Shown here one piece after another: positions 1 to 20,000 of a stretch of DNA of 20,000 nucleotides. The stretch's first letter is position 1. Every line of letters starts with the position of its first letter. A model generated the notes under the pieces. That model saw nothing but the letters and a program-made list of their open reading frames with translations, did no database searches and had not been told where the DNA came from. The position numbers and the translations under genes were made by a program. The stretch lies in IMG/VR virus record IMGVR_UViG_3300013105_000023, one strand, 5' to 3'. Source of the stretch: an uncultured virus (IMG/VR IMGVR_UViG_3300013105_000023). Lineage: Duplodnaviria; Heunggongvirae; Uroviricota; Caudoviricetes.

Positions 1-2
1 TT

Positions 3-569
3 CCATCGATGTCGGATCTCCTGGGTATCGGTCCGGAAGACATTGCCGCGATCCTGACGTCGTGGAACAACACGCTGAATGACATTCTGTCGGTGCCGAA
101 TGCCATCATCAACAAGGTGAATAGCTACGCGGACGAGGCTGTGTCATACTTGACGACGGTCGAGCGTGGACTTGACCAGATGATGGGCCAGATCACCGGT
201 ACCGTCGGGGCGTTCTACGGCGCTGTCGACAAGGTTAAGGACACGATCGGCACCATTGCCAACTTCCCGGAAAGCCTGGCATCCCGTGTGGGTCGCTTCC
301 TGGATAACGGCTTCATGTCACCAAACGGAGCGGACGGTTCCTTCCTGCTCAGTTCACACGGCGGCGGCAACGGGGACAGCCCCAGCAATGCCCTGGTCGG
401 TGGCGGAGCCCTCGGAGCGGCGGCCGCGGCGAGTTTGCTGTCTGCGGGGTCGCGAGCAGATCCGGGACCACAGCGTGGCGCCACGATCAAGCCAGTTCCG
501 GTTAACGTAGGTATCGTGAAGAATTCAGATCAAACGGCAACACTGCCAGTGGGAGTAATCGATGAGTAA
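3..569 (+). CDS. 5'-truncated hypothetical protein, probably virion/tail-associated
   Basis: Frame is open from the window start, so the true start is probably upstream. Amphipathic helical stretch then a Gly/Ala-rich region. Stop overlaps the next ATG (ATGAGTAA, 562-569). Function inferred only from position. Confidence 0.6.
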   Translation, partial: PSMSDLLGIGPEDIAAILTSWNNTLNDILSVPNAIINKVNSYADEAVSYLTTVERGLDQMMGQITGTVGAFYGAVDKVKDTIGTIANFPESLASRVGRFLDNGFMSPNGADGSFLLSSHGGGNGDSPSNALVGGGALGAAAAASLLSAGSRADPGPQRGATIKPVPVNVGIVKNSDQTATLPVGVIDE

Positions 570-1242
570 TTTAGGTGTTCGTTCCTACGCCAACTCGATG
601 TTGATCGAGAACCTGTTCCGTCAGCGGGCCATGCCAGACCTGCTGCCGAACGTGAAATCCTTCACGACCCGCATCCTGATGCCGAGCGTGAAGATCGTCG
701 AGGATGATTGTCACACGTTGATTGGCCGTAACGTCTCGGCCGATGACTATTCCATGGTGGGCTTGCTCGCCTTGGATACCGACGAGATCATCGATGAAGC
801 GTACGTCGTGGAACGTTACAAGAAGAACATTTTCACGATTCGCGTGCGTGACACGTGTGCATGTACCAGTACCGGTGGCATTTGTCGTAAGTGCTTGCAC
901 GGGACGTTTATCCGTTTGGGTATCAAGGACGATGTTCCGGCGGTGGGTTCCACCATCCGCATGCCAGTGGAGTCCTCGTCGTACCTGAACGCTCTGGCCA
1001 AGACTTACAGTGGCGCCCTGCTCGGGGTAAAACCCATGGCGGCAGCGCCATTGCCGATCCGTCCTGATTTATACGGTGGGATGGTGACCCACGAGGAAAT
1101 GACAATGGTTATCCGTGAGATGGCGTCTTTAAAAATCCCAACAGATGAGGTAGACTACCTCAATGGGATTCACGACAAATTCGAACGTGCCCTAGCGATT
1201 GTTGCTTACTACGGAGTCTACGGTAATGCGTTTAGAAAATAG
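562..1242 (+). CDS. RNA polymerase beta-prime-like fragment (bridge-helix end plus Zn site 2), 226 aa
   Basis: [20 protein letters not shown] resembles RpoC [45 protein letters not shown] resembles [21 protein letters not shown]. C50, C101, C108 and C111 match E. coli C814/C888/C895/C898 with the same C-x6-C-x2-C spacing. GGGAG SD upstream. Confidence 0.75.
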   Translation: [226 protein letters not shown]

Positions 1243-4200
1243 TCTTGGCGGGGATAACATTTACACCAACTTTCGGGTGTACGTGGAAGGGGTAGAAATC
1301 CCCTTCTCTTCAGCCAATATCTCCAACTCCTATGGTGGCCTCCCAACGGCCACCGTTTACGTTGCCCCTTGGCGTGGCTTCACGGAGATCACGAAGGGAT
1401 ACTTCCCGAAAATCCAGATCTTCTACCGTGACTTCAACCAGGGCCTGGCACCGTACGACGTTAAACGGCTGATCAGCACCATTCCGGATATTGAAGGTGC
1501 CGAAGAACGACTCGAAAACGCCAAAGAGACCTTCAACAAGGTCGAGCGTAACGCGTACAAACTGCTGTTCGACGGCGTTATTGCCAGCGTCCAGGACTCC
1601 AAGAGCCTGGGTGGCGACGGCGGCCAGTCTTCTATGGCGTTCAACTGCGTCCACCCTCACTATTTGCTGAACGAAATCCTCTTCAAGTTCATCGGGACCA
1701 ACCCGGAGACCGAGACGGCGAAGGATTCTGCGTTCGGGATCATGGTCGACGGCGGTAACGTCGGTTCAGTCTTTGCCATTGAGCAAGCCTTGGCCGGTGT
1801 CCACGAGCCACGCGACGGGGATAAGACCCTGGAAGCCGGTGGCAGTGACACGTCAGTGCTCTCAGAAGGCATGCAGGACAACTATTGGCGCCTTCAAGGC
1901 ATGCCCGGTGTCATTGTGGCCATGTGGAACTCCCTGAAACGCTCGGCTTACTCCGCGGCGTCGCAGGAAGACAAGTCGATCATGACCAAAATGTACATTC
2001 CGCTGTTAGAAGACGGCTTGAAGTACTTCAACCGCATGACGGGCCACCCGGTAATCGAAGGAGCGATCCAAAAGGACGCTCAGATCGCCCCGACGCCTGC
2101 TCCAACGGTGACGCAGACAGCAGAAAGCAACACGACACCAACCGGAAAGCTTCCCGAGCCGCCAAAAGGCACCCTCGGACAGAAGTTCATGTCGGATAAA
2201 GGTAAAAAAGAGCTGATTGAGTTCTCTGAAGGCCGTCGTTACCGTCTTTACGACGATGCTACCGGCAAAGAGATCACTTTCGCGGCCGATGCAGTGGGTA
2301 CGCCGACCATCGGTGTAGGTCATGCCGTGAAGAAAACGGATACCACCTACGATAAAGTCACTCTTTCGGACTTGGACATCGATAAACTGCTGAGCCAAGA
2401 CGTGGCGTCGGCGACACAGGCTGTAAACAACCTGGGATTAACCCTGTCACAGGGTCAGTTTGACGCTCTCGTGGACCTGACGTTTAACGTTGGCCCTGGT
2501 GCCAAGGGCGGTAAGGACGGAGCACTGTGGCAGGCAAGCGGCGAACCGTCAACGATCGTCCGTTTGATCACCGAAGGGAACACCCAAGGCGCTGCTGACG
2601 GCTTCCTCGCGTGGACCAAAGCGGGTGGATCGGTATCTCAAGGTCTGGTGACCCGCCGTTCACGCGACCGTTCATTCTTCCTGGATGCTCCGCTGCCCTC
2701 CTCCCAGGAGTTGGCAAACCAAGCCGCCGCGGCCAAAGGGACCACCGAAGAGATGTCGAACAACAACGGCAAACTCGTCCCGGCCAACCTGAATGGCTTG
2801 ATGCCGCGTGCCATGGCCGAACAGCTGCTGCACATCATGTCCAACGATCTGATGTCAGGCGGTACCGGTGAAGTGACGTCGTTTGGTTCGTTCATTCAGC
2901 AGTTCCTGCAGATCATCGAGTACGATCACGTCATCCTAAGCTCGCCGGCAGTACTGGGTATCGCGGGCCGCCGTGAAGTCATCGACCACGTGTTTAAACC
3001 GAAGATGTTTGCGTACTATTCACCGATCTGTAACGTCATTCTGCCACACATGTACGAATCGATGAGTGTGAACCTCGGGACAGACCAAGTGCCTTCCCGT
3101 GTGATCTACAACGCGATGCCGTTCCAAGCGGACTCGGCCATGAATGCCACGACCGATGTGTTCGCCCACAACTTCATTGCCCCACACTCTGTCCGTAAGG
3201 CGCTGGCCAACGGCGGTAACCTGTCCAAGACGTTGCTCCCAATGCGTGCGACCCCTGGCAAATACGAGTGGGCGAGCGGTGTGCGGACGGCGGACGGTAA
3301 CCTGCCATTCTGGTACAGCGTGCTGTCTCAGCAGTCTGAATCAGCGAACGTCGGCGACTTGGCAGACAAAGACACCGGTGCCCGCCTTAAAGCGGCATGG
3401 TTGAAGCTGTATCCAGAAGACCCGAACCTGAACCCGTGGGACGTGACGCTGGCGGGAATCAACGCGTATGAACGCTTGTTCTTCACCGGTGTCGACGTGG
3501 AATACTCGAACATCTACTCGTCCGCCCGCTCTGGCGTCGTGGATGGCGTGTTCAACCCGTTCATCATCCCGGGTTACCCAATGGACGTGGTCGATCCGTC
3601 GCCGCTCCGTGAGTCATACCACGGTTTCTGCACCAGCGTGAACCACTCAATCGATGCATCGGGCTACTCTTCGACCAACATTGGGATGAGCTCTGCGTAC
3701 ACCTTCTCGGAATTGGCCACGTGCTACATCCCGGGAACGTATCCGTGGCTGCTCGCTCAGTTGAAGATGGATGAAAACCTGAAGATGTACGGCAATACGC
3801 CTGCTTTCCAGCGTGCCTGCCAGTACTACGTTGACGTGCTCGGCGTCGGTGCAGCAGATCCGACCATCCTCGAAGCGTACTCAACCGGTAGACCAATCCC
3901 GGTGACGCGTAACATGGGTGTCTGGGAGATCGGTGGCTCAGAGGCCGTGAATGATCCGTCTCGCCCAACGCTCTACACGACGGCACTCGGTAACCTGAAC
4001 CTCGTGGCCCGCAACATCTCGACGCTTCTGGATGTTCAGATGGAACACAGCGTTCTGGCTGAAACTTTCGTGGATATCGACATGTGGAACCAAGGGTCAC
4101 CGACCGTGGAAGAAGTCCGCAAGGGTCCGTGGGTGAATGACGGCAAGACCGCATCGAGCAGTACGCTGCGGGGTCGCGACATGGAGTCTTCGGCGTTCAT

Positions 4201-4744
4201 CGACTACGAGTTCGACGGCGAGACGCCAGATCCAATCGTGAACGGCGGTCCACGTGATACCAACACGTCTCCGACGCCAGGTGCTCCGATCACCAGCGAT
4301 GAGAATGCGGCCAAGAGTCTGCCGGCCACGCCAACCGTTCTGCCTAAACTAGGTAAGCGGTGCTCGGTAGGCGTACTGGACTCGTCTTCACAGTCGATTC
4401 TGGCCTCCTGTCACCCGGATCTGATTAAGGTCGTGATGAAAGTCATCGAGACTCGCCCTGTGGTCGTCACCAGCGGTTACCGCTCTGGCGCCAAGCAGCA
4501 AGCCCTCGAGAACGACGCGTCGTCTTACGCTCAAGGTGCTGGCAACGGCTCTCGCCACCGTAAGTACCCGTCATGGGCGGTGGACATGGTGCCGTGCAAC
4601 GATCTGCATGCATCTTCACGTGCGGTGATGAGTAACTTCGCCCAGTACGTACTGCAAGTCGGGAACTCACTCGGCGTCAAGCTGCGTTGGGGCGGGAACT
4701 TCTCAACCTATGATCCGGTGCACTTCGACTTAGGCCTCGGTTAA
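1226..4744 (+). CDS. Baseplate hub-like protein with inserted GH24 lysozyme and C-terminal M15 peptidase
   Basis: ATG 1226 follows GGAG (1213-1216). Hub-like N-terminus (FRVYVEGVEIP...LLFDGVIASV) and hub-like C-terminal strands (FNPFIIPGYPMDV...TSVNHSIDASGYSST). Lysozyme motifs SEG..YDD, TIGVGH, QGQFDALVDLTFNVG, GLVTRR at about 2186-2686. M15 motifs CHPDL, SGYRS, SRH, AVD, WGGNF..DPVHFD at about 4376-4741. Confidence 0.85.
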   Translation: MRLENSLGGDNIYTNFRVYVEGVEIPFSSANISNSYGGLPTATVYVAPWRGFTEITKGYFPKIQIFYRDFNQGLAPYDVKRLISTIPDIEGAEERLENAKETFNKVERNAYKLLFDGVIASVQDSKSLGGDGGQSSMAFNCVHPHYLLNEILFKFIGTNPETETAKDSAFGIMVDGGNVGSVFAIEQALAGVHEPRDGDKTLEAGGSDTSVLSEGMQDNYWRLQGMPGVIVAMWNSLKRSAYSAASQEDKSIMTKMYIPLLEDGLKYFNRMTGHPVIEGAIQKDAQIAPTPAPTVTQTAESNTTPTGKLPEPPKGTLGQKFMSDKGKKELIEFSEGRRYRLYDDATGKEITFAADAVGTPTIGVGHAVKKTDTTYDKVTLSDLDIDKLLSQDVASATQAVNNLGLTLSQGQFDALVDLTFNVGPGAKGGKDGALWQASGEPSTIVRLITEGNTQGAADGFLAWTKAGGSVSQGLVTRRSRDRSFFLDAPLPSSQELANQAAAAKGTTEEMSNNNGKLVPANLNGLMPRAMAEQLLHIMSNDLMSGGTGEVTSFGSFIQQFLQIIEYDHVILSSPAVLGIAGRREVIDHVFKPKMFAYYSPICNVILPHMYESMSVNLGTDQVPSRVIYNAMPFQADSAMNATTDVFAHNFIAPHSVRKALANGGNLSKTLLPMRATPGKYEWASGVRTADGNLPFWYSVLSQQSESANVGDLADKDTGARLKAAWLKLYPEDPNLNPWDVTLAGINAYERLFFTGVDVEYSNIYSSARSGVVDGVFNPFIIPGYPMDVVDPSPLRESYHGFCTSVNHSIDASGYSSTNIGMSSAYTFSELATCYIPGTYPWLLAQLKMDENLKMYGNTPAFQRACQYYVDVLGVGAADPTILEAYSTGRPIPVTRNMGVWEIGGSEAVNDPSRPTLYTTALGNLNLVARNISTLLDVQMEHSVLAETFVDIDMWNQGSPTVEEVRKGPWVNDGKTASSSTLRGRDMESSAFIDYEFDGETPDPIVNGGPRDTNTSPTPGAPITSDENAAKSLPATPTVLPKLGKRCSVGVLDSSSQSILASCHPDLIKVVMKVIETRPVVVTSGYRSGAKQQALENDASSYAQGAGNGSRHRKYPSWAVDMVPCNDLHASSRAVMSNFAQYVLQVGNSLGVKLRWGGNFSTYDPVHFDLGLG

Positions 4745-4757
4745 GGGTATAAGAAAT

Positions 4758-5048
4758 ATGGCTCAATACAGTGACATTTTGACCTACCCTGAAGGACTTC
4801 CGGCCCAGCTGCCGGAGTCCCAGGTGGTGGACCCAGATGCGAATCTGGCAGAAACCGACAAGATGAACGTCGTTCGGCGTTTTAACAACATGATCCCAAC
4901 GGTGCTGATCTCTGACCAGCGTCTCTCGACGACCTCGAATGCAAAGGACTGCTTCGTGTACCGTCGGAATTCGCTCAAGCTGCAGCAACTGATGGTGGAT
5001 TACTCGTACAACGTCGTGCGGGCGTTCAATTTAACTCAAGAGGTGTAA
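4758..5048 (+). CDS. Hypothetical protein, 96 aa
   Basis: Fills the gap between hub and sigma genes. Its 3' end carries the GAGG SD for the next gene. No recognised motif. Confidence 0.75.
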   Translation: MAQYSDILTYPEGLPAQLPESQVVDPDANLAETDKMNVVRRFNNMIPTVLISDQRLSTTSNAKDCFVYRRNSLKLQQLMVDYSYNVVRAFNLTQEV

Positions 5049-5049
5049 C

Positions 5050-5751
5050 ATGAATGATTTAGGCGACAAGGATCTCGAGCTATTCCACGCGTGGAAAAAC
5101 ACCGGGGATAAGAAGGCTCTGAAGAACCTGGTGAACAACCTGAAGCCGATCATCCAGAGTGAGACGACGAAGCTCTCTGGAAGCTTGCCTGCCTCGGCCT
5201 TGAAAGGTGAGGTCGTCTCCTGGACGATTCGTGCTATCAAGGATTACGATCCGAGCAAAGGCACCAAGCTGTCGACCCACGTCTATAACTGGACGCGTAA
5301 GGCCAAGCGCCTGAACTACACGTACCAGAACCTGGCGAACATGGGTGAGGACAAACAGCTGCAGTACGGCAAGTACAACCTCGCGGTGACCAACCTTGAG
5401 GATGAACACGGCCGGGAACCGACCAACAAGGAAATTGGCCAACGGCTGGGCTGGTCGGAGAAAGAAGTCGAGAAGTATAAAGGCCTGATCTTCCAGGATC
5501 ACTTTGAGTCCGGCAATCTGTACTCTGCCGAGCACTCACGGTTCAACTCGGACCCGCTGAAACTAAACTACATTAGAGACAAGCTGACCCCGGACGAACT
5601 GAAGATCCTTGATGGACGAGCGAATAAGATCCCTGCGGGTGATATCGCTCAGTCACTCAACATGAACATCAACCAGTACAACTATGCGTCCGGTAAGCTG
5701 ACAAGTAAAGTGCAGCAACTACTATCGGAGTATGGAACGTGGGACAACTAA
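5050..5751 (+). CDS. Phage sigma70-family sigma factor (regions 2, 3, 4; group-3-like size)
   Basis: GDKKALKNLVNNLKPII (2.1), AIKDYDPSKGTKLSTHVYNW (2.2-2.3), LEDEHGREPTNKEIGQRLGWSEKEV (region 3), KLTPDELKIL...AGDIAQSLNMN (region 4 HTH). GAGG SD. Confidence 0.9.
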   Translation: MNDLGDKDLELFHAWKNTGDKKALKNLVNNLKPIIQSETTKLSGSLPASALKGEVVSWTIRAIKDYDPSKGTKLSTHVYNWTRKAKRLNYTYQNLANMGEDKQLQYGKYNLAVTNLEDEHGREPTNKEIGQRLGWSEKEVEKYKGLIFQDHFESGNLYSAEHSRFNSDPLKLNYIRDKLTPDELKILDGRANKIPAGDIAQSLNMNINQYNYASGKLTSKVQQLLSEYGTWDN

Positions 5752-6131
5752 CCGACATCCCTGGACTGGTCAAACAGCATTTCGAAAAGGTTTCGGGCTA
5801 CTTCGGTAGCCTTTCGGGGTTCTTTGGGGACCCCGAGTCTCCTCCGAAAGACGCCAAAGACGCTATCCAGGGCGTGGACCTCTCAGGTCTGCGAAGAGCA
5901 ATCCAGAGTCGTGTAAACGGCTCTGCCTCCACCGCCAATGCCGCCCTTTTAGATTCCTTTCGTAATATGGACTCCGTCGTCGCCGAAATGGGCCTGCGGA
6001 ACATGTCACGGGCGGAGTATTACCGTGAGGCGGCATCTGAAGCGGGTATCCGTGAGGCAAACTGGCAAAGCACCATGCAGGGTAACCTGTACAACTTAAC
6101 GGGAGCCCGACCGGCTCCGAAGGATAGCTGA
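5739..6131 (+). CDS. Hypothetical protein, 130 aa
   Basis: GTG start with GGAG SD at 5727-5730. Overlaps the sigma stop and shares TGATG with the next gene. Confidence 0.7.
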   Translation: MGQLTDIPGLVKQHFEKVSGYFGSLSGFFGDPESPPKDAKDAIQGVDLSGLRRAIQSRVNGSASTANAALLDSFRNMDSVVAEMGLRNMSRAEYYREAASEAGIREANWQSTMQGNLYNLTGARPAPKDS

Positions 6132-6637
6132 TGGCCCGCGTAGGCAATAGTGAAAACCTAAAGCAGCAAGACCGCTATGATCTGCTGCTCTTGAGCTTCC
6201 CCGACGGCTTCCCGAACTCCAAGCTGGAATTCACGCTTGGGGAAAACCCACGGAAGATCACCGGGCTGCAGAAAGTCGTCCAGGTGTTCATCAAGTGTTT
6301 GATGACCGGGCAAGGGAGCGACCCGATCTACCCGAAGCAAGGCACAGACTTCCGCAATTACGTGTGGTATTCTAACATCACCGAAAGCGCCACGGCGGCC
6401 CGGGCGGCGATCACGTCTGCAGTCAAGCAGGCGAGTGACCAAGCGAAAGCCATTCTGAACTCCTATCTGTATTCTGCGGAGTCTCAGCTGGAGAGCGTCG
6501 AAGTGCTGGATGCCGTACAGGGTAGCGAAACAACCATCGTCAAGGTCCGCATCCTGACCAAAGCCGGCGTAGGCGCCCCGATCGCCCTGCCGTTTAACAG
6601 TACCGGTTTAGTCCTGAATGAGGTAACCAATGGCTAA
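6131..6637 (+). CDS. Baseplate wedge subunit, T4 gp25/P2 gpW-like
   Basis: ITGLQKVVQVFIKCLMTGQGSDPIYPKQGTDF fits the gp25/gpW L-x-T-x-x-G....P..G pattern. Directly precedes the baseplate-J-like gene. Confidence 0.75.
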   Translation: MARVGNSENLKQQDRYDLLLLSFPDGFPNSKLEFTLGENPRKITGLQKVVQVFIKCLMTGQGSDPIYPKQGTDFRNYVWYSNITESATAARAAITSAVKQASDQAKAILNSYLYSAESQLESVEVLDAVQGSETTIVKVRILTKAGVGAPIALPFNSTGLVLNEVTNG

Positions 6638-8219
6638 CGATATCTTTTCCGTAATGAGCTCGCTGGAGTTGTCAGCCGATGACGTCCAGCAAGCAGAAGT
6701 CTTCGCCCAGCAATATCTGGAGTCGAAGTTCCCGACGGTCGACTTCCGTCAGGGCACCGGTGTGCGTGACTTGGTGATTCGTCCCAACGCGATGCTGATT
6801 GCTCTGGTCCGCAAGTACACCGAAACGTATTTCGACAATGCCACCCTGGCCAACGTCACTGAAAGTACGCCGGCTGAAGTCGTTGACAACATCCTGTCGA
6901 ACTTCTTCGTCACCCGTAACAGCGGTTCCTTCGCGACGGTCCGCACACGTCTGTACTTCCTGTTCCAGAATGGGATTCCAAGCAACGTGAGCCTGCCGAC
7001 GTCAGCGTTCTTCTCACCCGATAACACCCACATGTTCTTCCCGTCGGCTCCGGTCTTTGCCCAGCCGCTGAAGGACGGTGACACGCCGATCTCCGGAATG
7101 ACCTACCTGCAGTACGATTCCTCGGAAGAACTGTGGTATTTCGACGCGGACATGTCCTCACAGACGTCTGACGAAGCGTTCAACGACTTCAAAGACAACG
7201 ATCTGCTGTACTTCACGCTGTTCAACCCGTACTTCGTGAAAGGCAAGATCCTGTACCAGGACACGCCAGCCGTTCGTCAGGAAACTAACCTGGAGATGGT
7301 GGACCGTTCGTACAACTCGATCTCAACCCGTAACCTGATCAACGACCCGTCGATCACTTCGCGTCTGTATGACGTGTTCAACTACCTGCAGCGTATCAAG
7401 GTGGTGGGCATGGGTGATCCGGACATGTGGCGTGACTACGTGCAGGTTGAAGGCGTCTTCGAGAACCTGCAGACCGAGAAGCTCGACAAGTTCCGCATCC
7501 ACATTGGTGGTACCGTGGATATCTACGCTGACACGCCGTTCCGTACGTCTGTCGTGCAGTACACCACGAACGCAGCAGGAGTGATTGAACTGACCGGCGG
7601 AATCTTCGACATTGAACGCTCAACCCTGTCTGGTGGCGTGGATGCCGACCAGATTCCCCAGACGGCGACCGCGGCGATCTCCTACCCGAACACCACGGTG
7701 TACACCGATCACGTGCCACTCGTGCCGCAGAAAGACTTCGGCCTGTCGGCGAAGCAGATCGTGCACATCGACTTCGGTCTGGACTACCCGAACCAGACGG
7801 CAAGCTTCGTGGTCCGCAAGTTCACCGGCCTGGAAGACATCCAGTCGTTCCTGGAAGATCAGCAGTCCCGTGTCGTCTGTGCAAACCAACTGGTCCGTGC
7901 CTTCGAGCCGATCCTGGTGAACGTGGAAGCCAAGGGTTACGAACAATCGTACTCGGCCACACAGATCTCTGCTGCCCGCAAAGCGATCGAAGACTACTTC
8001 AACCAGACTCCGGTTAATGGTACCATCTACGTCTCAGAGATTTATAAGCTGATTGGCGACGCCGGTTTGACCAGCATCAAGGCACCTCTTCCTGTGAGCG
8101 TTTACGCCATCGCGAAGGACTTGGTTGGCACCAGTGCGACGATCACAGACGGGTACACCGCAGGCAGCACGCAGCGTTTCTACCTGGATACCTTTACTGT
8201 TACTCCGGAGCCTAAATGA
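6630..8219 (+). CDS. Baseplate J-like (gp6-like) wedge protein
   Basis: N-terminal VDFRQGTGVRDLVIRP, NFFVTRNSGSFAT, ETNLEMVDR and GGTVDIY motifs are typical of baseplate-J proteins. GAGG SD. Gene order after the gp25-like gene fits. Confidence 0.8.
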   Translation: MANDIFSVMSSLELSADDVQQAEVFAQQYLESKFPTVDFRQGTGVRDLVIRPNAMLIALVRKYTETYFDNATLANVTESTPAEVVDNILSNFFVTRNSGSFATVRTRLYFLFQNGIPSNVSLPTSAFFSPDNTHMFFPSAPVFAQPLKDGDTPISGMTYLQYDSSEELWYFDADMSSQTSDEAFNDFKDNDLLYFTLFNPYFVKGKILYQDTPAVRQETNLEMVDRSYNSISTRNLINDPSITSRLYDVFNYLQRIKVVGMGDPDMWRDYVQVEGVFENLQTEKLDKFRIHIGGTVDIYADTPFRTSVVQYTTNAAGVIELTGGIFDIERSTLSGGVDADQIPQTATAAISYPNTTVYTDHVPLVPQKDFGLSAKQIVHIDFGLDYPNQTASFVVRKFTGLEDIQSFLEDQQSRVVCANQLVRAFEPILVNVEAKGYEQSYSATQISAARKAIEDYFNQTPVNGTIYVSEIYKLIGDAGLTSIKAPLPVSVYAIAKDLVGTSATITDGYTAGSTQRFYLDTFTVTPEPK

Positions 8220-10387
8220 CCGACTACATCTCATCAGCCGATTTAAACGGCATCGGTGAGCGTGCTGCGGTGAAAGGGCAGATGGCCTATTACTATGGGC
8301 TGTCTGACTTTTGGTTGCAAATCTTTGCCGACCAGGACCTCGTGGATTCGCTCCTCGAGGTTTCAACCCAGCAGCTCGGCGACGTGTACGGCCAGTTCCT
8401 GCAACGTGCGGGGAATATCTCCCTGTCCACGATCCAGGAGTCGTACAACTCCCAGCTGAAGCTGTTCCTGTTCTCTCCGGGCGACGCCGTCGACGGTCTG
8501 ACTGGCTCGGTCTTCAAGTTGCCAGAGCGTGTGACGAACATCTCGTTCATCATGAACCGCCCAATGCTGCCGTCAATCAGCCTGTCGAAAGGCGTGCACT
8601 TTGAGATCAACGAAGACTTCACCGAGATCTCTTTCTACAAGCCGCTGGCCGAAATGGGCTTCCCACAGCGTGTGACCGAAGCCGGTGTCACCCAGTTTGC
8701 CCTGTGGGCATCGAACGTGTGCGTTGACGAGAACATCATTTACTCCCAGTTTGGACGTGCCGTGGGCATGACGCCAGACCGGGCAATCGGGAACTACAAG
8801 GACTTCGTGAACGGGCTCTACTTCCTGTATTCACACGGTCCCGTGATCAACTACATGCAAGCCGGTGTTAACCTGGCGCTCGGTATTCCCACCGTTCGTG
8901 CCAACGAAAAGGTCATGAGCGTGCTGCAGAACCCGATCAACGGCCACTGGGAAATCCTGACCGCCACCAACTTCTACGATATCCCGTACGGATTCCAACC
9001 GGACGTGGCGGAAGGTGATGCTCTGGTTGAAGGCACACAGCTGGTGAACTGGGTCGACATCAAGGACTACCAGAAGTCCGGCGAGTGGTGGTACAACACG
9101 TTCATCCCTGCCGAGCTGACCGGTGGTGTGCAGTATCCTCCTGTGCAGCCGAACACCGATATGGCGTACATTATGCGTCAATACTTGCGTTATAACACGT
9201 TCATGGTACTCTTCCAGCAGACCGGCGTGGACATGCAAGGCTATTACACCGTATCGGATGTCATTTGGCGTGCCCGCCCGAGTCACACTTTCCCTGTGTT
9301 TGTCTGGAGAGCGCCAATGGGTGATGAGATTGTGATGATCACCGATGACGACTTCGAGATGAACCAACGTGTTGATATTGAGGATAACATCTATGACACA
9401 GCTATTATCGACTTCGTCCGCGGAGACAAGAGCACATACTTTGACCGTGGAACCAACTTTTACAACCGCTTCCAAATCCCTGTTTACCATCAAGGAATGC
9501 TCGGAGATGCTCCAAAGCTGGGAGAATTCCGAGGCCGCAATGCAGATGGCACAGCACTCTCTGGAATTGGCGGCTGGGTTGATGAAGCGGGAGAAGCCGT
9601 CGATTCCGACATTCAGCGTATCGACCCCGTCCTCTCGAGCCGAGGATCTATGGCGGTCGTTCGCGGCCGTTCGACCGGTCTCCGCGGTAAGAGGGGTAGT
9701 GATACCACCGGATCAACCGGGCTTCTTCGCACTTATGTGAATGCTGAAGGGCAGACGTTAGACCTGGACACGCGGAACATTGTCCCGCTGTACCTCTGCC
9801 ACAAGGACGAGCTGGTGGCCAAACTGGCTAAAATCAACTTACAGTCCTCGGTCGCTTTGGTTAAGCAAGACGCCCTTCCGTTCTGGGCAGGCCCGGTTGC
9901 TTTACAAGACGTGTACGACGATATTATCGTCCGCAAGTCGGGCACCGTGGCAAAAGATTATGATGCTACGCTTGAGAAAGTGTTCACGTTCGACTACACC
10001 GACGAGTACGTGCCACCAATTCTGTCGAAGCACGCGGGCCAGATGTACGTACCGCGTAAGGAAGACCTGCCGGCAACCGGTAAGCTCTTCTTCGCGGAGA
10101 TCTTCCAGGATAACTGGTCGGTCTCACTGGTAATCGAGCAAGTTGACATCCTGCCGACGTACTTCCCGGTGAACGACGGGGATCCGATTGAAATGACACT
10201 GTCATTCATTCAGAAAGACGGGACGTCACCTATCACTCGCGGCACGTACCTCGCCAACGCGGCGTTGACCGACGCTCGAGCGGTACAGGATGGGCATTAT
10301 CAGGACGGACGTGGCGGGGCGAACTTGAAGTTTGACCGCAGTGGCAATTTCGGTGGTGACCTCAAGGCCATCATCCGCAGAGACTAA
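8216..10387 (+). CDS. Large baseplate wedge protein (gp7/gpI-like position), 723 aa
   Basis: ATGA overlap with the J-like gene. LYFLYSHGP..NYMQAGVNLALG and RARPSHT resemble gpI-type wedge motifs. Call is mainly from synteny. Confidence 0.6.
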   Translation: MTDYISSADLNGIGERAAVKGQMAYYYGLSDFWLQIFADQDLVDSLLEVSTQQLGDVYGQFLQRAGNISLSTIQESYNSQLKLFLFSPGDAVDGLTGSVFKLPERVTNISFIMNRPMLPSISLSKGVHFEINEDFTEISFYKPLAEMGFPQRVTEAGVTQFALWASNVCVDENIIYSQFGRAVGMTPDRAIGNYKDFVNGLYFLYSHGPVINYMQAGVNLALGIPTVRANEKVMSVLQNPINGHWEILTATNFYDIPYGFQPDVAEGDALVEGTQLVNWVDIKDYQKSGEWWYNTFIPAELTGGVQYPPVQPNTDMAYIMRQYLRYNTFMVLFQQTGVDMQGYYTVSDVIWRARPSHTFPVFVWRAPMGDEIVMITDDDFEMNQRVDIEDNIYDTAIIDFVRGDKSTYFDRGTNFYNRFQIPVYHQGMLGDAPKLGEFRGRNADGTALSGIGGWVDEAGEAVDSDIQRIDPVLSSRGSMAVVRGRSTGLRGKRGSDTTGSTGLLRTYVNAEGQTLDLDTRNIVPLYLCHKDELVAKLAKINLQSSVALVKQDALPFWAGPVALQDVYDDIIVRKSGTVAKDYDATLEKVFTFDYTDEYVPPILSKHAGQMYVPRKEDLPATGKLFFAEIFQDNWSVSLVIEQVDILPTYFPVNDGDPIEMTLSFIQKDGTSPITRGTYLANAALTDARAVQDGHYQDGRGGANLKFDRSGNFGGDLKAIIRRD

Positions 10388-13857: not shown

Positions 13858-13868
13858 TTACTTATACC
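13858..13868 (-). promoter_or_regulatory. Candidate phage promoter motif GGTATAAGTAA
   Basis: Intergenic, 23 nt before ATG 13834. Near-identical copy at 19753-19763 with the same spacing. Confidence 0.55.
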
Positions 13869-19729: not shown

Positions 19730-20000
19730 AGGTGATCTCCTGTGTGTCTATGTTAGTTATACCTGTGGATAAAGCATTATTGAGAATTGTACCACAGTGT
19801 TACACAGACGTTCCAGGGATTTGGTTGAGATGTAGACGAAAAAAGAGATTGATACGTTTGAACGGAAATTACGTGGAAACCCACACCGCCCTATAGCTTT
19901 CTTACCCAAGCATACTGACTCTCTATATATCTTTAAAAAAGCCTTAGTAAGTAGTTTATAGTATAGGGGAACAGTTACACTATAAAGGGTGTCAAAAGTG
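19730..20000. other. AT-rich non-coding regulatory region containing one perfect DnaA box
   Basis: No ORF in the track and visibly AT-richer than the genes. TTATCCACA on the minus strand at 19764-19772. Confidence 0.5.
19753..19763 (-). promoter_or_regulatory. Candidate phage promoter motif GGTATAACTAA
   Basis: 23 nt before ATG 19729 at the head of the HD-nrdA operon. Matches the 13858-13868 copy at 10 of 11 positions. Confidence 0.55.

Follow-up and report, generated by a model that had tools for sequence, protein, structure and literature searches.

A probable virion sigma factor and a redundant copy of a β′ segment in a phage lineage with its own bacterial-type RNA polymerase

The window analysed here is a 20,000-nucleotide (nt) stretch of DNA from an uncultured virus of the class Caudoviricetes (IMG/VR record IMGVR_UViG_3300013105_000023), and our subject is two of its genes that lie on either side of a gene for a virion-associated cell-wall hydrolase: an open reading frame (ORF) at 562–1242 that resembles the β′ subunit of bacterial RNA polymerase, and an ORF at 5050–5751 that resembles a sigma factor. 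ORF 5050–5751 is a genuine sigma70-family factor, ORF 562–1242 is a redundant paralog of the β′ segment between the bridge helix and the trigger loop, and the lineage encodes one complete bacterial-type polymerase core, in two or three pieces, elsewhere in its genome. Our best explanation, which as a whole we give about an even chance, is that the window comes from an Arash-like myophage of about 176–180 kb and holds its terminase-proximal operon of late structural genes, and that the phage's sigma-dependent polymerase is made late and packaged in the virion together with a non-catalytic virion protein derived from β′. Whole-genome statements below come from a close relative, G001, and not from the window's own genome; this virus record of 176,323 bp has terminal repeats and is about 96% identical to the window, at 96% over both of the window's halves. 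Of 50,697 phage records a single one matched window positions 1–8000, that of Salmonella phage Arash (OQ632216, 180,819 bp), with 75% identity across 91% of the query and an identical gene order.

Family databases did not recognize the β′-like protein: ORF 562–1242 has no match in PHROG, NCBIfam or Pfam, in the last of these not even at E ≤ 1. Against PDB chains, its single sequence returned β′ in 7 of 11 matches at E ≤ 10, all at the same place, the best being 6j9e_D (E = 0.007, residues 45–117 aligned to 832–905). A word-indexed search collected 32 homologs of 214–291 amino acids (aa), and a profile of 19 of these reached 76 PDB sequences at E ≤ 1, the best 60 of which are all β′ in that same region, led by 8i23_D (E = 4.3e-7, profile positions 41–128 aligned to chain residues 834–919). 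By Escherichia coli numbering the matched stretch should correspond to the second zinc site together with the beginning of the trigger loop. Four cysteines, C50, C101, C108 and C111, are invariant across the 19 aligned sequences (codons at nt 709–711, 862–864, 883–885 and 892–894), and residues 39–187 (nt 676–1122) follow β′ collinearly from just after the bridge helix, through the four-cysteine zinc site, to the adjoining first trigger-loop helix. The initial annotation had proposed a β′-like gene at this position, and in both coordinates and kinship it was right.

It had further read this gene as one fragment of a split enzyme and suggested that the remaining polymerase pieces and the catalytic motif be sought in the rest of the genome. 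That search, a Pfam scan of 134 G001 ORFs of at least 140 aa and five additional ORFs, located a complete enzyme. Beside the portal gene lies a 1,525-aa fusion of β with the N-terminal part of β′ (β′-N; G001 36431–41008), with Rpb2 domains 2, 3 and 6 followed by Rpb1 domains 1 and 2, and another gene encodes the 613-aa C-terminal part (β′-C), with Rpb1 domains 4 and 5. β′-C aligns to rpoC_TIGR positions 548–1070 (E = 3.8e-61) and matches the NCBIfam rpoC2_cyan and β/β′ fusion models, all below their cut-offs. β′-N aligns to E. coli β′ 173–518 (E = 3e-47), a stretch that presumably holds the clamp helices on which sigma region 2 docks. Six-frame searches of G001 with PF04998, PF00623 and PF00562 found only these two genes, a single domain set genome-wide, and the Asp-triad motif D[FYW]DGD occurs once in the six frames, within the fusion. 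The joined protein, of 1,510–1,525 aa, is found in G001, G002 and G003; G004, G005 and G006 (compared: L063, L064 and L065) have separate genes for β (1,133–1,198 aa) and β′-N (381–419 aa). In G005 another gene stands between these two. Fused and separate forms also differ in the catalytic motif, which is DYDGD in the former and DFDGD in the latter.

Two genes that follow β′-C may belong to the same machinery. An SNF2-family ATPase gene (G001 46302–47720, Arash gp217) comes directly after it and is followed by the gene for a 619-aa protein (G001 47770–49629, Arash gp218). The virion table published for Arash lists gp217 and gp218 with 38 and 36 unique peptides, at about the abundance of β′-C (PMC10585845). 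They are possible candidates for polymerase-associated factors, and gp217 might be RapA-like.

β′-C has its own cysteine cluster (zinc site) and trigger loop in one chain. Because it carries its own copy of exactly the segment that ORF 562–1242 resembles, the latter is a paralog and not a split-off piece. The two are clearly related: BLASTP aligns residues 45–168 of the paralog to 234–348 of β′-C (E = 2e-8), and hhalign of the paralog family against six phage β′-C sequences gives 98% probability (E = 3e-13, 143 columns, residues 39–187 to 225–378). In that alignment the family-invariant T-Y-S-G of the paralog faces T-K-H of β′-C, which places a serine where the trigger-loop histidine should be. 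A β′-C query also picks up the paralog in two of the five distant genomes (at E = 2e-7 and E = 2e-6), and the paralog hidden Markov model (HMM) also finds four genuine long β′ ORFs in metagenome loci (E = 1.6e-6 to 3e-10). The catalytic double-psi barrel with its Asp-triad motif is a different matter: ORF 562–1242 has no such motif, PF00623 matches only the 1,525-aa fusion, and PF04998, run over six frames of G001, matches β′-C and not the paralog. The phage-encoded, fragmented, bacterial-type polymerase that the initial annotation had proposed is borne out by the fusion and β′-C, and the lineage has recognizable sigma70-family proteins, but ORF 562–1242 is not the missing β′ piece, given the segment present in β′-C and the single catalytic domain set.

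The paralog also evolves faster than β′-C (30–44% against 50–57% identity in the same genomes). An exhaustive representative search, in clusters at 50% identity, extended its family to 241 clusters at E ≤ 0.001, 156 of them at E ≤ 1e-10. Large inserts occur in the family after the cysteine cluster and at the position equivalent to the trigger loop, and some members have Laminin_G_3 lectin-like domains, within inserts or in a C-terminal extension; these large, partly Laminin_G_3-bearing inserts fit a structural or adaptor function better than a seat in the active centre. The lectin-like inserts sit where cellular β′ takes lineage-specific inserts. Two scans of viral contigs returned nothing on the genomic context of the Laminin_G_3-bearing variants, and a single metagenome scan for them gave ordinary clade members and genuine β′ genes instead. 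The long, low-ranking profile matches P0181–P0186 are SprB/Ig-repeat surface proteins and were discarded as spurious repeat matches.

Could the paralog nevertheless work inside the enzyme, as an exchangeable module that replaces or accompanies its counterpart in β′-C in a virion-specific polymerase and, for example, keeps the packaged form inactive or alters its properties? The protein is homologous to mobile catalytic elements, it is conserved in every polymerase-encoding relative examined, and in locus L029 its gene stands directly next to the sigma gene. However, the polymerase has no vacancy for it, because β′-C contains the segment in one chain, and the serine in place of the trigger-loop histidine, the faster evolution, the Laminin_G_3 inserts or fusions of some members and a signal below that of the polymerase subunits in the Arash virion table all count against such a role, which we regard as very improbable.

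A more radical proposal would treat the gp4-like, gp6-like and paralog genes as a second, cryptic and diverged polymerase associated with the tail, of which only the part from bridge helix to trigger loop is recognizable. The gene order would then be collinear with β followed by β′, D128 and D131, within DDxDND, form an acidic cluster that is invariant in gp6-like proteins, gp4 ranks as the second most abundant virion protein in the Arash table (PMC10585845), and the polymerase fused to the tape measure of Thermus phage P23-45 offers a precedent (PMC10770324). Against this, hhalign of the gp4-like and gp6-like families with phage β and β′-N gives a probability of only 0.1–0.8% (below 1% for the gp6-like family), a type of comparison that is weak for two-barrel polymerases, which are known to escape sequence methods. 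Neither family has a polymerase match in PDB profile searches or any match in Pfam or PHROG, the best PDB match of the gp6-like family (FtbJ, E = 0.0024) falls in a low-complexity helical part, and the paralog lacks the trigger-loop histidine. We place this proposal at the far edge of plausibility.

The identification of the sigma factor, also made in the initial annotation, holds. Sigma70_r3 (PF04539) scores 35.3 bits on ORF 5050–5751 against a cut-off of 25.3 (residues 107–143, nt 5368–5478). Region 2 of the single sequence stays below its cut-off (PF04542, 15.9 against 24 bits) and is recovered with a profile of 12 family sequences, in which positions 15–145 align to RpoS 88–220 (E = 3.5e-10); against RpoS and SigA structures the profile covers regions 2 and 3. 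Region 4 is found in alignments to sigma-F (positions 63–223 to 1l0o_C 67–242, E = 1.3e-6) and FliA (positions 108–227 to 1rp3_A 97–235, E = 5e-6), and the invariant residues N208, N211, Y212, L217 and K220 fall in the C-terminal helices. At E ≤ 0.001 the profile reaches 62 PDB sequences, of which the best 60 are all sigma factors, and Foldseek with the AlphaFold2 (AF2) model (mean predicted local confidence, pLDDT, 74) returns 121 PDB matches, of which the best 50 are all sigma chains or models. By score the protein is not assigned to the FliA/WhiG subfamily, the nearest NCBIfam models, whose cut-offs it falls far short of (NF005809, 42 bits against 326; TIGR02479, 33.7 against 189.6). Its sequence is 100% identical in G001.

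A second sigma factor of 293 aa, with Sigma70_r2 above cut-off, is encoded elsewhere in G001. Region 4 is apparent in both proteins, and BLASTP between the two detects no likeness. The likely start of the second sigma gene is an ATG eight codons into the called ORF, and a host-type promoter-like sequence, TTGACT-17-TACTAT, stands just before the gene (G001 ~27030–27090).

The arrangement of these genes is conserved. The paralog alignment, run against IMG/VR, picked out 20 loci, of which several are near-duplicates; where a locus is long enough the order is gp6-like protein, paralog, hydrolase, 96-aa ORF, sigma, 168-aa protein, wedge protein and 723-aa protein. This order is kept in the 20 viral and 2 metagenome loci, in relatives down to about 30% identity, which supplies the synteny check that had been suggested. 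By tblastn, the sigma gene is present in all 19 loci that reach the region, the 96-aa ORF in 18 of them and the 130-aa ORF in 5. Locus L029 is rearranged, with the hydrolase and the 96-aa ORF upstream and the sigma gene 22 nt after the paralog. β, β′-C and the second sigma are encoded in 5 of 5 distant genomes (92–100% complete), three of which have β and β′-N as separate genes. The window sigma is about 40% identical across the clade, whose members come from varied metagenome samples; among cultured phages, the paralog or the window sigma gene is found only in Arash and three phages named for Vibrio (D69, D148 and D181), so that the four cultured members are named for Salmonella or Vibrio.

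Evidence on where the proteins end up comes from the virion preparations of Arash, in so far as the published table covers them (PMC10585845). The fusion, Gp206, is the most detected and abundant protein there (128 unique peptides, 3516 spectra), gp4 is second in abundance, β′-C (Gp216) has 40 unique peptides and 1210 spectra, the sigma homolog (Gp10) 24 unique peptides and 467 spectra at 100% coverage, and the paralog homolog (Gp7) 7 unique peptides and 202 spectra. The hydrolase (Gp8) is present with 44 unique peptides, and the table also lists gp12–14, the homologs of the 168-, 529- and 723-aa proteins; gp11, the homolog of the 130-aa ORF, has only 2 unique peptides, and both the second sigma (Gp196) and the homolog of the 96-aa ORF (Gp9) are absent from the table. 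Dividing these spectra by protein length, a crude measure of our own, gives about 2.0 per residue for the sigma, 2.3 and 2.0 for the polymerase subunits and 0.9 for the paralog. A polymerase that is late-made and possibly packaged in the virion, as the initial annotation had suspected, agrees with these preparations and with the placing of its genes, since the polymerase and the window sigma belong to the structural genes of the plus strand, which a late-type motif precedes.

The same data admit a more conventional account, in which the window sigma is a late- or middle-gene factor in the manner of T4 or SPO1 that redirects host or phage core within the cell and whose presence in virion preparations reflects carry-over, its late product being abundant, and not injection. 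The gene lies in a late operon without a promoter of its own, many obviously non-structural enzymes accompany it in the Arash preparation (PMC10585845), and jumbo phages without their own polymerase usually encode recognizable sigmas for host core, according to a review (PMC7598289). A sigma that is made only late, however, cannot switch on its own late genes unless it is carried in; the coverage of the Arash sigma is complete and its spectral density is like that of the polymerase subunits, whereas the other sigma is absent; and its position in the tail and baseplate stretch is conserved in every locus that reaches it. We therefore consider this account unlikely.

Alternatively, both proteins might be injected to remodel the host polymerase, the sigma taking over host core and the β′ mimic titrating or blocking a host partner that binds this β′ surface. 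Both are virion-associated in the Arash table (PMC10585845), both genes flank a tail hydrolase that enters first, and the paralog keeps the fold-defining cysteines and not the catalytic histidine, as would be expected of a mimic. Yet the phage, by the same table, carries its own complete polymerase, and abundantly, and a sigma that stays about 40% identical despite the varied sources of the clade is better explained by co-evolution with a core of the phage than with the cores of diverse hosts. We know of no host target for this β′ segment, and we think such remodelling improbable.

Two promoter-like motifs divide the genome by strand. GGTATAA occurs 39 times on the minus strand of G001 and once on the plus strand; 24 of the 39 lie in gaps between ORF calls, mostly just upstream of minus-strand genes. 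Aligned, the sites read TCCA.AA, a 17-nt spacer and GGTATAAGTAA.GTGTA.A, a sigma70-style bipartite layout with its own −35 element. This bipartite class (−35-like TCCA.AA, 17-nt spacer, GGTATAAG) stands before the minus-strand genes for replication and nucleotide metabolism. The plus strand alone carries YTAAAATA, at 10 sites, of which 9 lie between genes, 11–53 nt before plus-strand genes that include those for portal, β′-C, terminase and the gene after terminase; the motif resembles, we assume, the T4 late promoter type that consists of a −10 element only. In 50 kb of Arash the plus/minus counts are 0/8 for GGTATAA and 3/0 for YTAAAATA, with the strand bias of G001, and distant relatives have versions of both motifs ahead of terminase. 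Where a gap is divergent, the two classes stand back to back, CTTATACC and then CTAAAATA. The window itself has two minus-strand GGTATAA sites, one plus-strand copy and no YTAAAATA. Transcription of its plus-strand genes therefore probably begins at the sites by the terminase gene and the gene after it, so that paralog, hydrolase, sigma and baseplate genes probably form one late transcript from near the terminase gene.

In our preferred reading, of a late-made, packaged, sigma-dependent polymerase with a β′-derived virion protein, the window sigma would be packaged with the phage core as a holoenzyme and would act as the promoter-specificity subunit for the first transcription after injection. 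Its likely early targets would be the GGTATAAG promoters before the minus-strand replication and nucleotide-metabolism genes, and the second, non-virion sigma would serve another promoter class. The paralog would be no catalytic subunit but a β′ segment exapted as a virion protein, its translation coupled to that of the gp6-like protein; close to the tail hydrolase it may serve in structure, in ejection or as an adaptor.

Several points weigh against this reading. The Arash preparation is not specific, because its table lists 116 proteins that include replication and nucleotide enzymes (ribonucleotide reductase, ligase, primase and helicases), and the Arash authors raise possible carry-over (PMC10585845). 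The pairing of each sigma with a promoter class draws on the logic of timing only, and region 4 is apparent in both sigmas. That the window sigma would bind the phage core, rather than host core, is a presumption of this reading. The host-type promoter-like sequence before the second sigma gene hints that host polymerase acts early, although such matches are common by chance. For the paralog, the AF2 model is confident (pLDDT 80), but Foldseek against the PDB returned nothing at E ≤ 0.001; its top entry is 9n9p_D (E = 0.26), in a list made up mostly of β′ chains, and the best VIA-align row, Mycobacterium tuberculosis β′ 6edt_D (Z = 5.0, 126 residues), is weak and within the range of chance helical matches. 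Zinc binding by the paralog, finally, is predicted from its four cysteines.

A bolder form of delivery would treat the sigma and the paralog as cargo that is loaded at the tail hub and reaches the cell before the DNA, like the effectors beside VgrG in type VI secretion. Within it the paralog would be a β′-C mimic that docks or chaperones sigma, or β/β′-N, until ejection; alternatively, what is left of a second, tail-borne polymerase could be the paralog and its gp4-like and gp6-like neighbours. Taken jointly with these two variants we hold the idea to be decidedly unlikely. If it were true, a transcription system of bacterial type, complete and dependent on sigma, would enter the host on injection.

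The features of the window are collected in Table 1.

Table 1. Coordinates of genes and promoter-like motifs in the 20,000-nt window
Feature	Position	Strand	Basis or remark
gp6-like virion protein gene, 3′ part (470 aa in G001; cut by window start)	3–569	+	Homolog of Arash gp6, 'structural protein'
β′ paralog, 226 aa	562–1242	+	PDB profile, invariant Cys, BLASTP, hhalign
Virion-associated cell-wall hydrolase, 1181 aa	1226–4744	+	Pfam, PHROG; open from TTG 1199, probable start ATG 1226
Lone plus-strand GGTATAA	4746–4752	+	5 nt before 96-aa ORF, without flanking consensus, probably chance
96-aa ORF	4758–5048	+	Travels with hydrolase block
Sigma70-family protein, 233 aa, regions 2, 3 and 4	5050–5751	+	Pfam, profile, Foldseek
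130-aa ORF	5739–6131	+	Near relatives only
Structural genes of 168, 529 and 723 aa	6131–10387	+	529-aa protein baseplate-wedge-like; conserved order
'Class A' promoter-like core	13862–13868	−	Upstream of minus-strand nucleotide-metabolism genes
Second 'class A' promoter-like core	19757–19763	−	Motif match

The plus strand carries tightly packed genes from position 3 to about 11.7 kb, after which minus-strand genes of nucleotide metabolism follow (dNMP (deoxynucleoside monophosphate) kinase, both ribonucleotide reductase subunits, a MazG-like protein and a phosphatase). The gp6-like gene stops inside the first codons of the paralog gene, an overlap of 8 nt (569/562) with GGGAG before the ATG. 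With the first base of the paralog tblastn match set to locus position 10001 and that match beginning at query residue 1–6, the gp6-like ORF ends 1–8 nt past this base in 9 of 10 relatives, and 8 nt before it in L028. The hydrolase gene in turn overlaps the end of the paralog gene, 13 nt separate it from the 96-aa ORF (4744 to 4758), 1 nt separates that ORF from the sigma gene (5048 to 5050), and the sigma gene overlaps the 130-aa ORF by 13 nt (5751/5739). All four ORFs of the initial annotation accordingly stand where it had put them, abutting or overlapping their neighbours, and it was also right that no terminator separates them: terminator-like sites number 11 against 10.9 expected from shuffles, and at this chance level none is credible. 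Its suggestion that the small ORFs are accessory subunits found no evidence. Neither the 96-aa nor the 130-aa ORF has a family match in Pfam, PHROG or NCBIfam, their best Atlas scores (0.80 and 0.77) are at chance level, the 96-aa ORF follows the hydrolase and not the sigma gene in L029, and the 130-aa ORF is confined to 5 of the 19 loci.

The hydrolase has a GH24-type lysozyme domain at residues 357–489 (nt 2267–2665) and a second endolysin-like domain at residues 1060–1178 (nt 4376–4732), and from its sequence this C-terminal domain looks like a peptidase-type wall hydrolase. By tblastn, distant relatives match residues ~19–291 and 505–1004 only; because their matches skip residues ~292–504, the lysozyme domain is an insertion of the near, Arash-like group. 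No relevant PDB match was returned for its first 300 aa. A role as tape measure, for which the length minus the two enzyme domains would fit a 140-nm tail, was dropped because the protein looks globular and no 19-residue window has a hydropathy above 1.6. A baseplate-hub role is plausible. The initial annotation had gone further in calling this the hub gene of a baseplate operon: the baseplate label rests on a match of the 529-aa protein (6630–8219) to the phrog_6 baseplate wedge subunit (E = 4e-10), and a hub identity of the gene at 1226–4744 found no confirmation in the PDB search of its N-terminal part. The 168-aa protein gave no match against the PDB, and its gene is present in two copies in L039 (14746–15219 and 16049–16522).

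Other features of these genomes lie apart from the polymerase. A repeat of ~70–150 bp, at 95–100% identity, has at least five copies, among them window 19849–20000; copies in G001 are at 111641–111911, 150971–151113, 6708–6786, 77283–77351 and 43446–43528. All copies have one orientation whatever the direction of the neighbouring genes, and they occur in divergent, convergent and same-direction gaps. The repeat matches no Rfam family. Outside the window, G001 has genes (163432–163884, 154400–155545, 171491–173011, 174040–175326 and 80004–82252) for an Acb1-like anti-CBASS phosphodiesterase, an RtcB ligase, a nicotinamide phosphoribosyltransferase, an NMN (nicotinamide mononucleotide) adenylyltransferase/Nudix pair of NAD (nicotinamide adenine dinucleotide) salvage, and an adjacent pair of ThiF-like and JAB-like proteins.

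How does this system compare with those already described? Arash is of the same lineage and has the same gene order as the window. Its authors annotate gp10 as a sigma factor and gp206 and gp216 as polymerase subunits and report them in virions, with gp206 given as a β subunit and gp7 merely as a 'structural protein'; the Arash annotation and the available text make no mention of the β/β′-N fusion or of promoter classes (PMC10585845). The mReC group consists of Caudovirales contigs from IMG/VR and metagenomes with cell-like β and β′ (PMC7481178). The window's clade shares one trait with them, a Caudovirales contig on which both β and β′ are detectable by cellular HMMs, and probably belongs with those contigs of Weinheimer and Aylward (2020). 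In that paper the words 'sigma' and 'virion' each occur 0 times (PMC7481178). Our literature search, which covered papers available without subscription, found no paper on a sigma-dependent virion polymerase and none on a β′ paralog in this clade.

Virion-packaged phage polymerases have been either single-subunit giants (N4, crAss-like) or heavily split enzymes with an unrecognizable specificity subunit (phiKZ, AR9). As described for phiKZ and AR9, two polymerase sets each comprise four β/β′ pieces and a fifth subunit without sigma similarity, and the virion-packaged form is proposed to transcribe early genes (PMC7598289). A phage-encoded bacterial-type polymerase is common to those phages and this lineage; here, by contrast, there is one set, β is unsplit and fused or adjacent to β′-N, and two proteins are recognizable members of the sigma70 family. 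The lineage differs as well from the jumbo phages reported to have sigmas and no polymerase (PMC7598289), in that it has both. P23-45 has an active two-barrel polymerase domain within its tape measure, delivered with the tail (PMC10770324). The window resembles it in having polymerase-derived sequence in the tail module, but has a separate 226-aa non-catalytic protein, and profile comparison detected no adjoining barrel domains.

T4 gp55 and SPO1 gp28 and gp34 are phage sigmas that redirect host core and change its choice of promoters. The window likewise encodes a sigma-family protein; unlike those factors, it has regions 2, 3 and 4, is accompanied by a phage-encoded core and is found in the virion preparations listed for a relative. 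Among cellular enzymes, the split of RpoC1 and RpoC2 in cyanobacteria and plastids and the Helicobacter-type β/β′ fusion are natural arrangements, and the phage split point and fusion mimic both at once. Cellular enzymes with split or fused rpoB and rpoC are not known to have an extra paralog of the segment from zinc site to trigger loop. The phage has one, a rare instance in which part of the catalytic machinery of a polymerase was duplicated and kept for another job. The lineage joins a near-canonical bacterial core, cut or fused at natural joints, to two ordinary-looking sigmas, one of which appears to travel in the particle, and this makes it a tractable system for the packaging, ejection and promoter-class switching of a sigma-dependent holoenzyme; Arash grows on Salmonella Typhimurium ATCC 14028, and the three other isolates are named as Vibrio phages.

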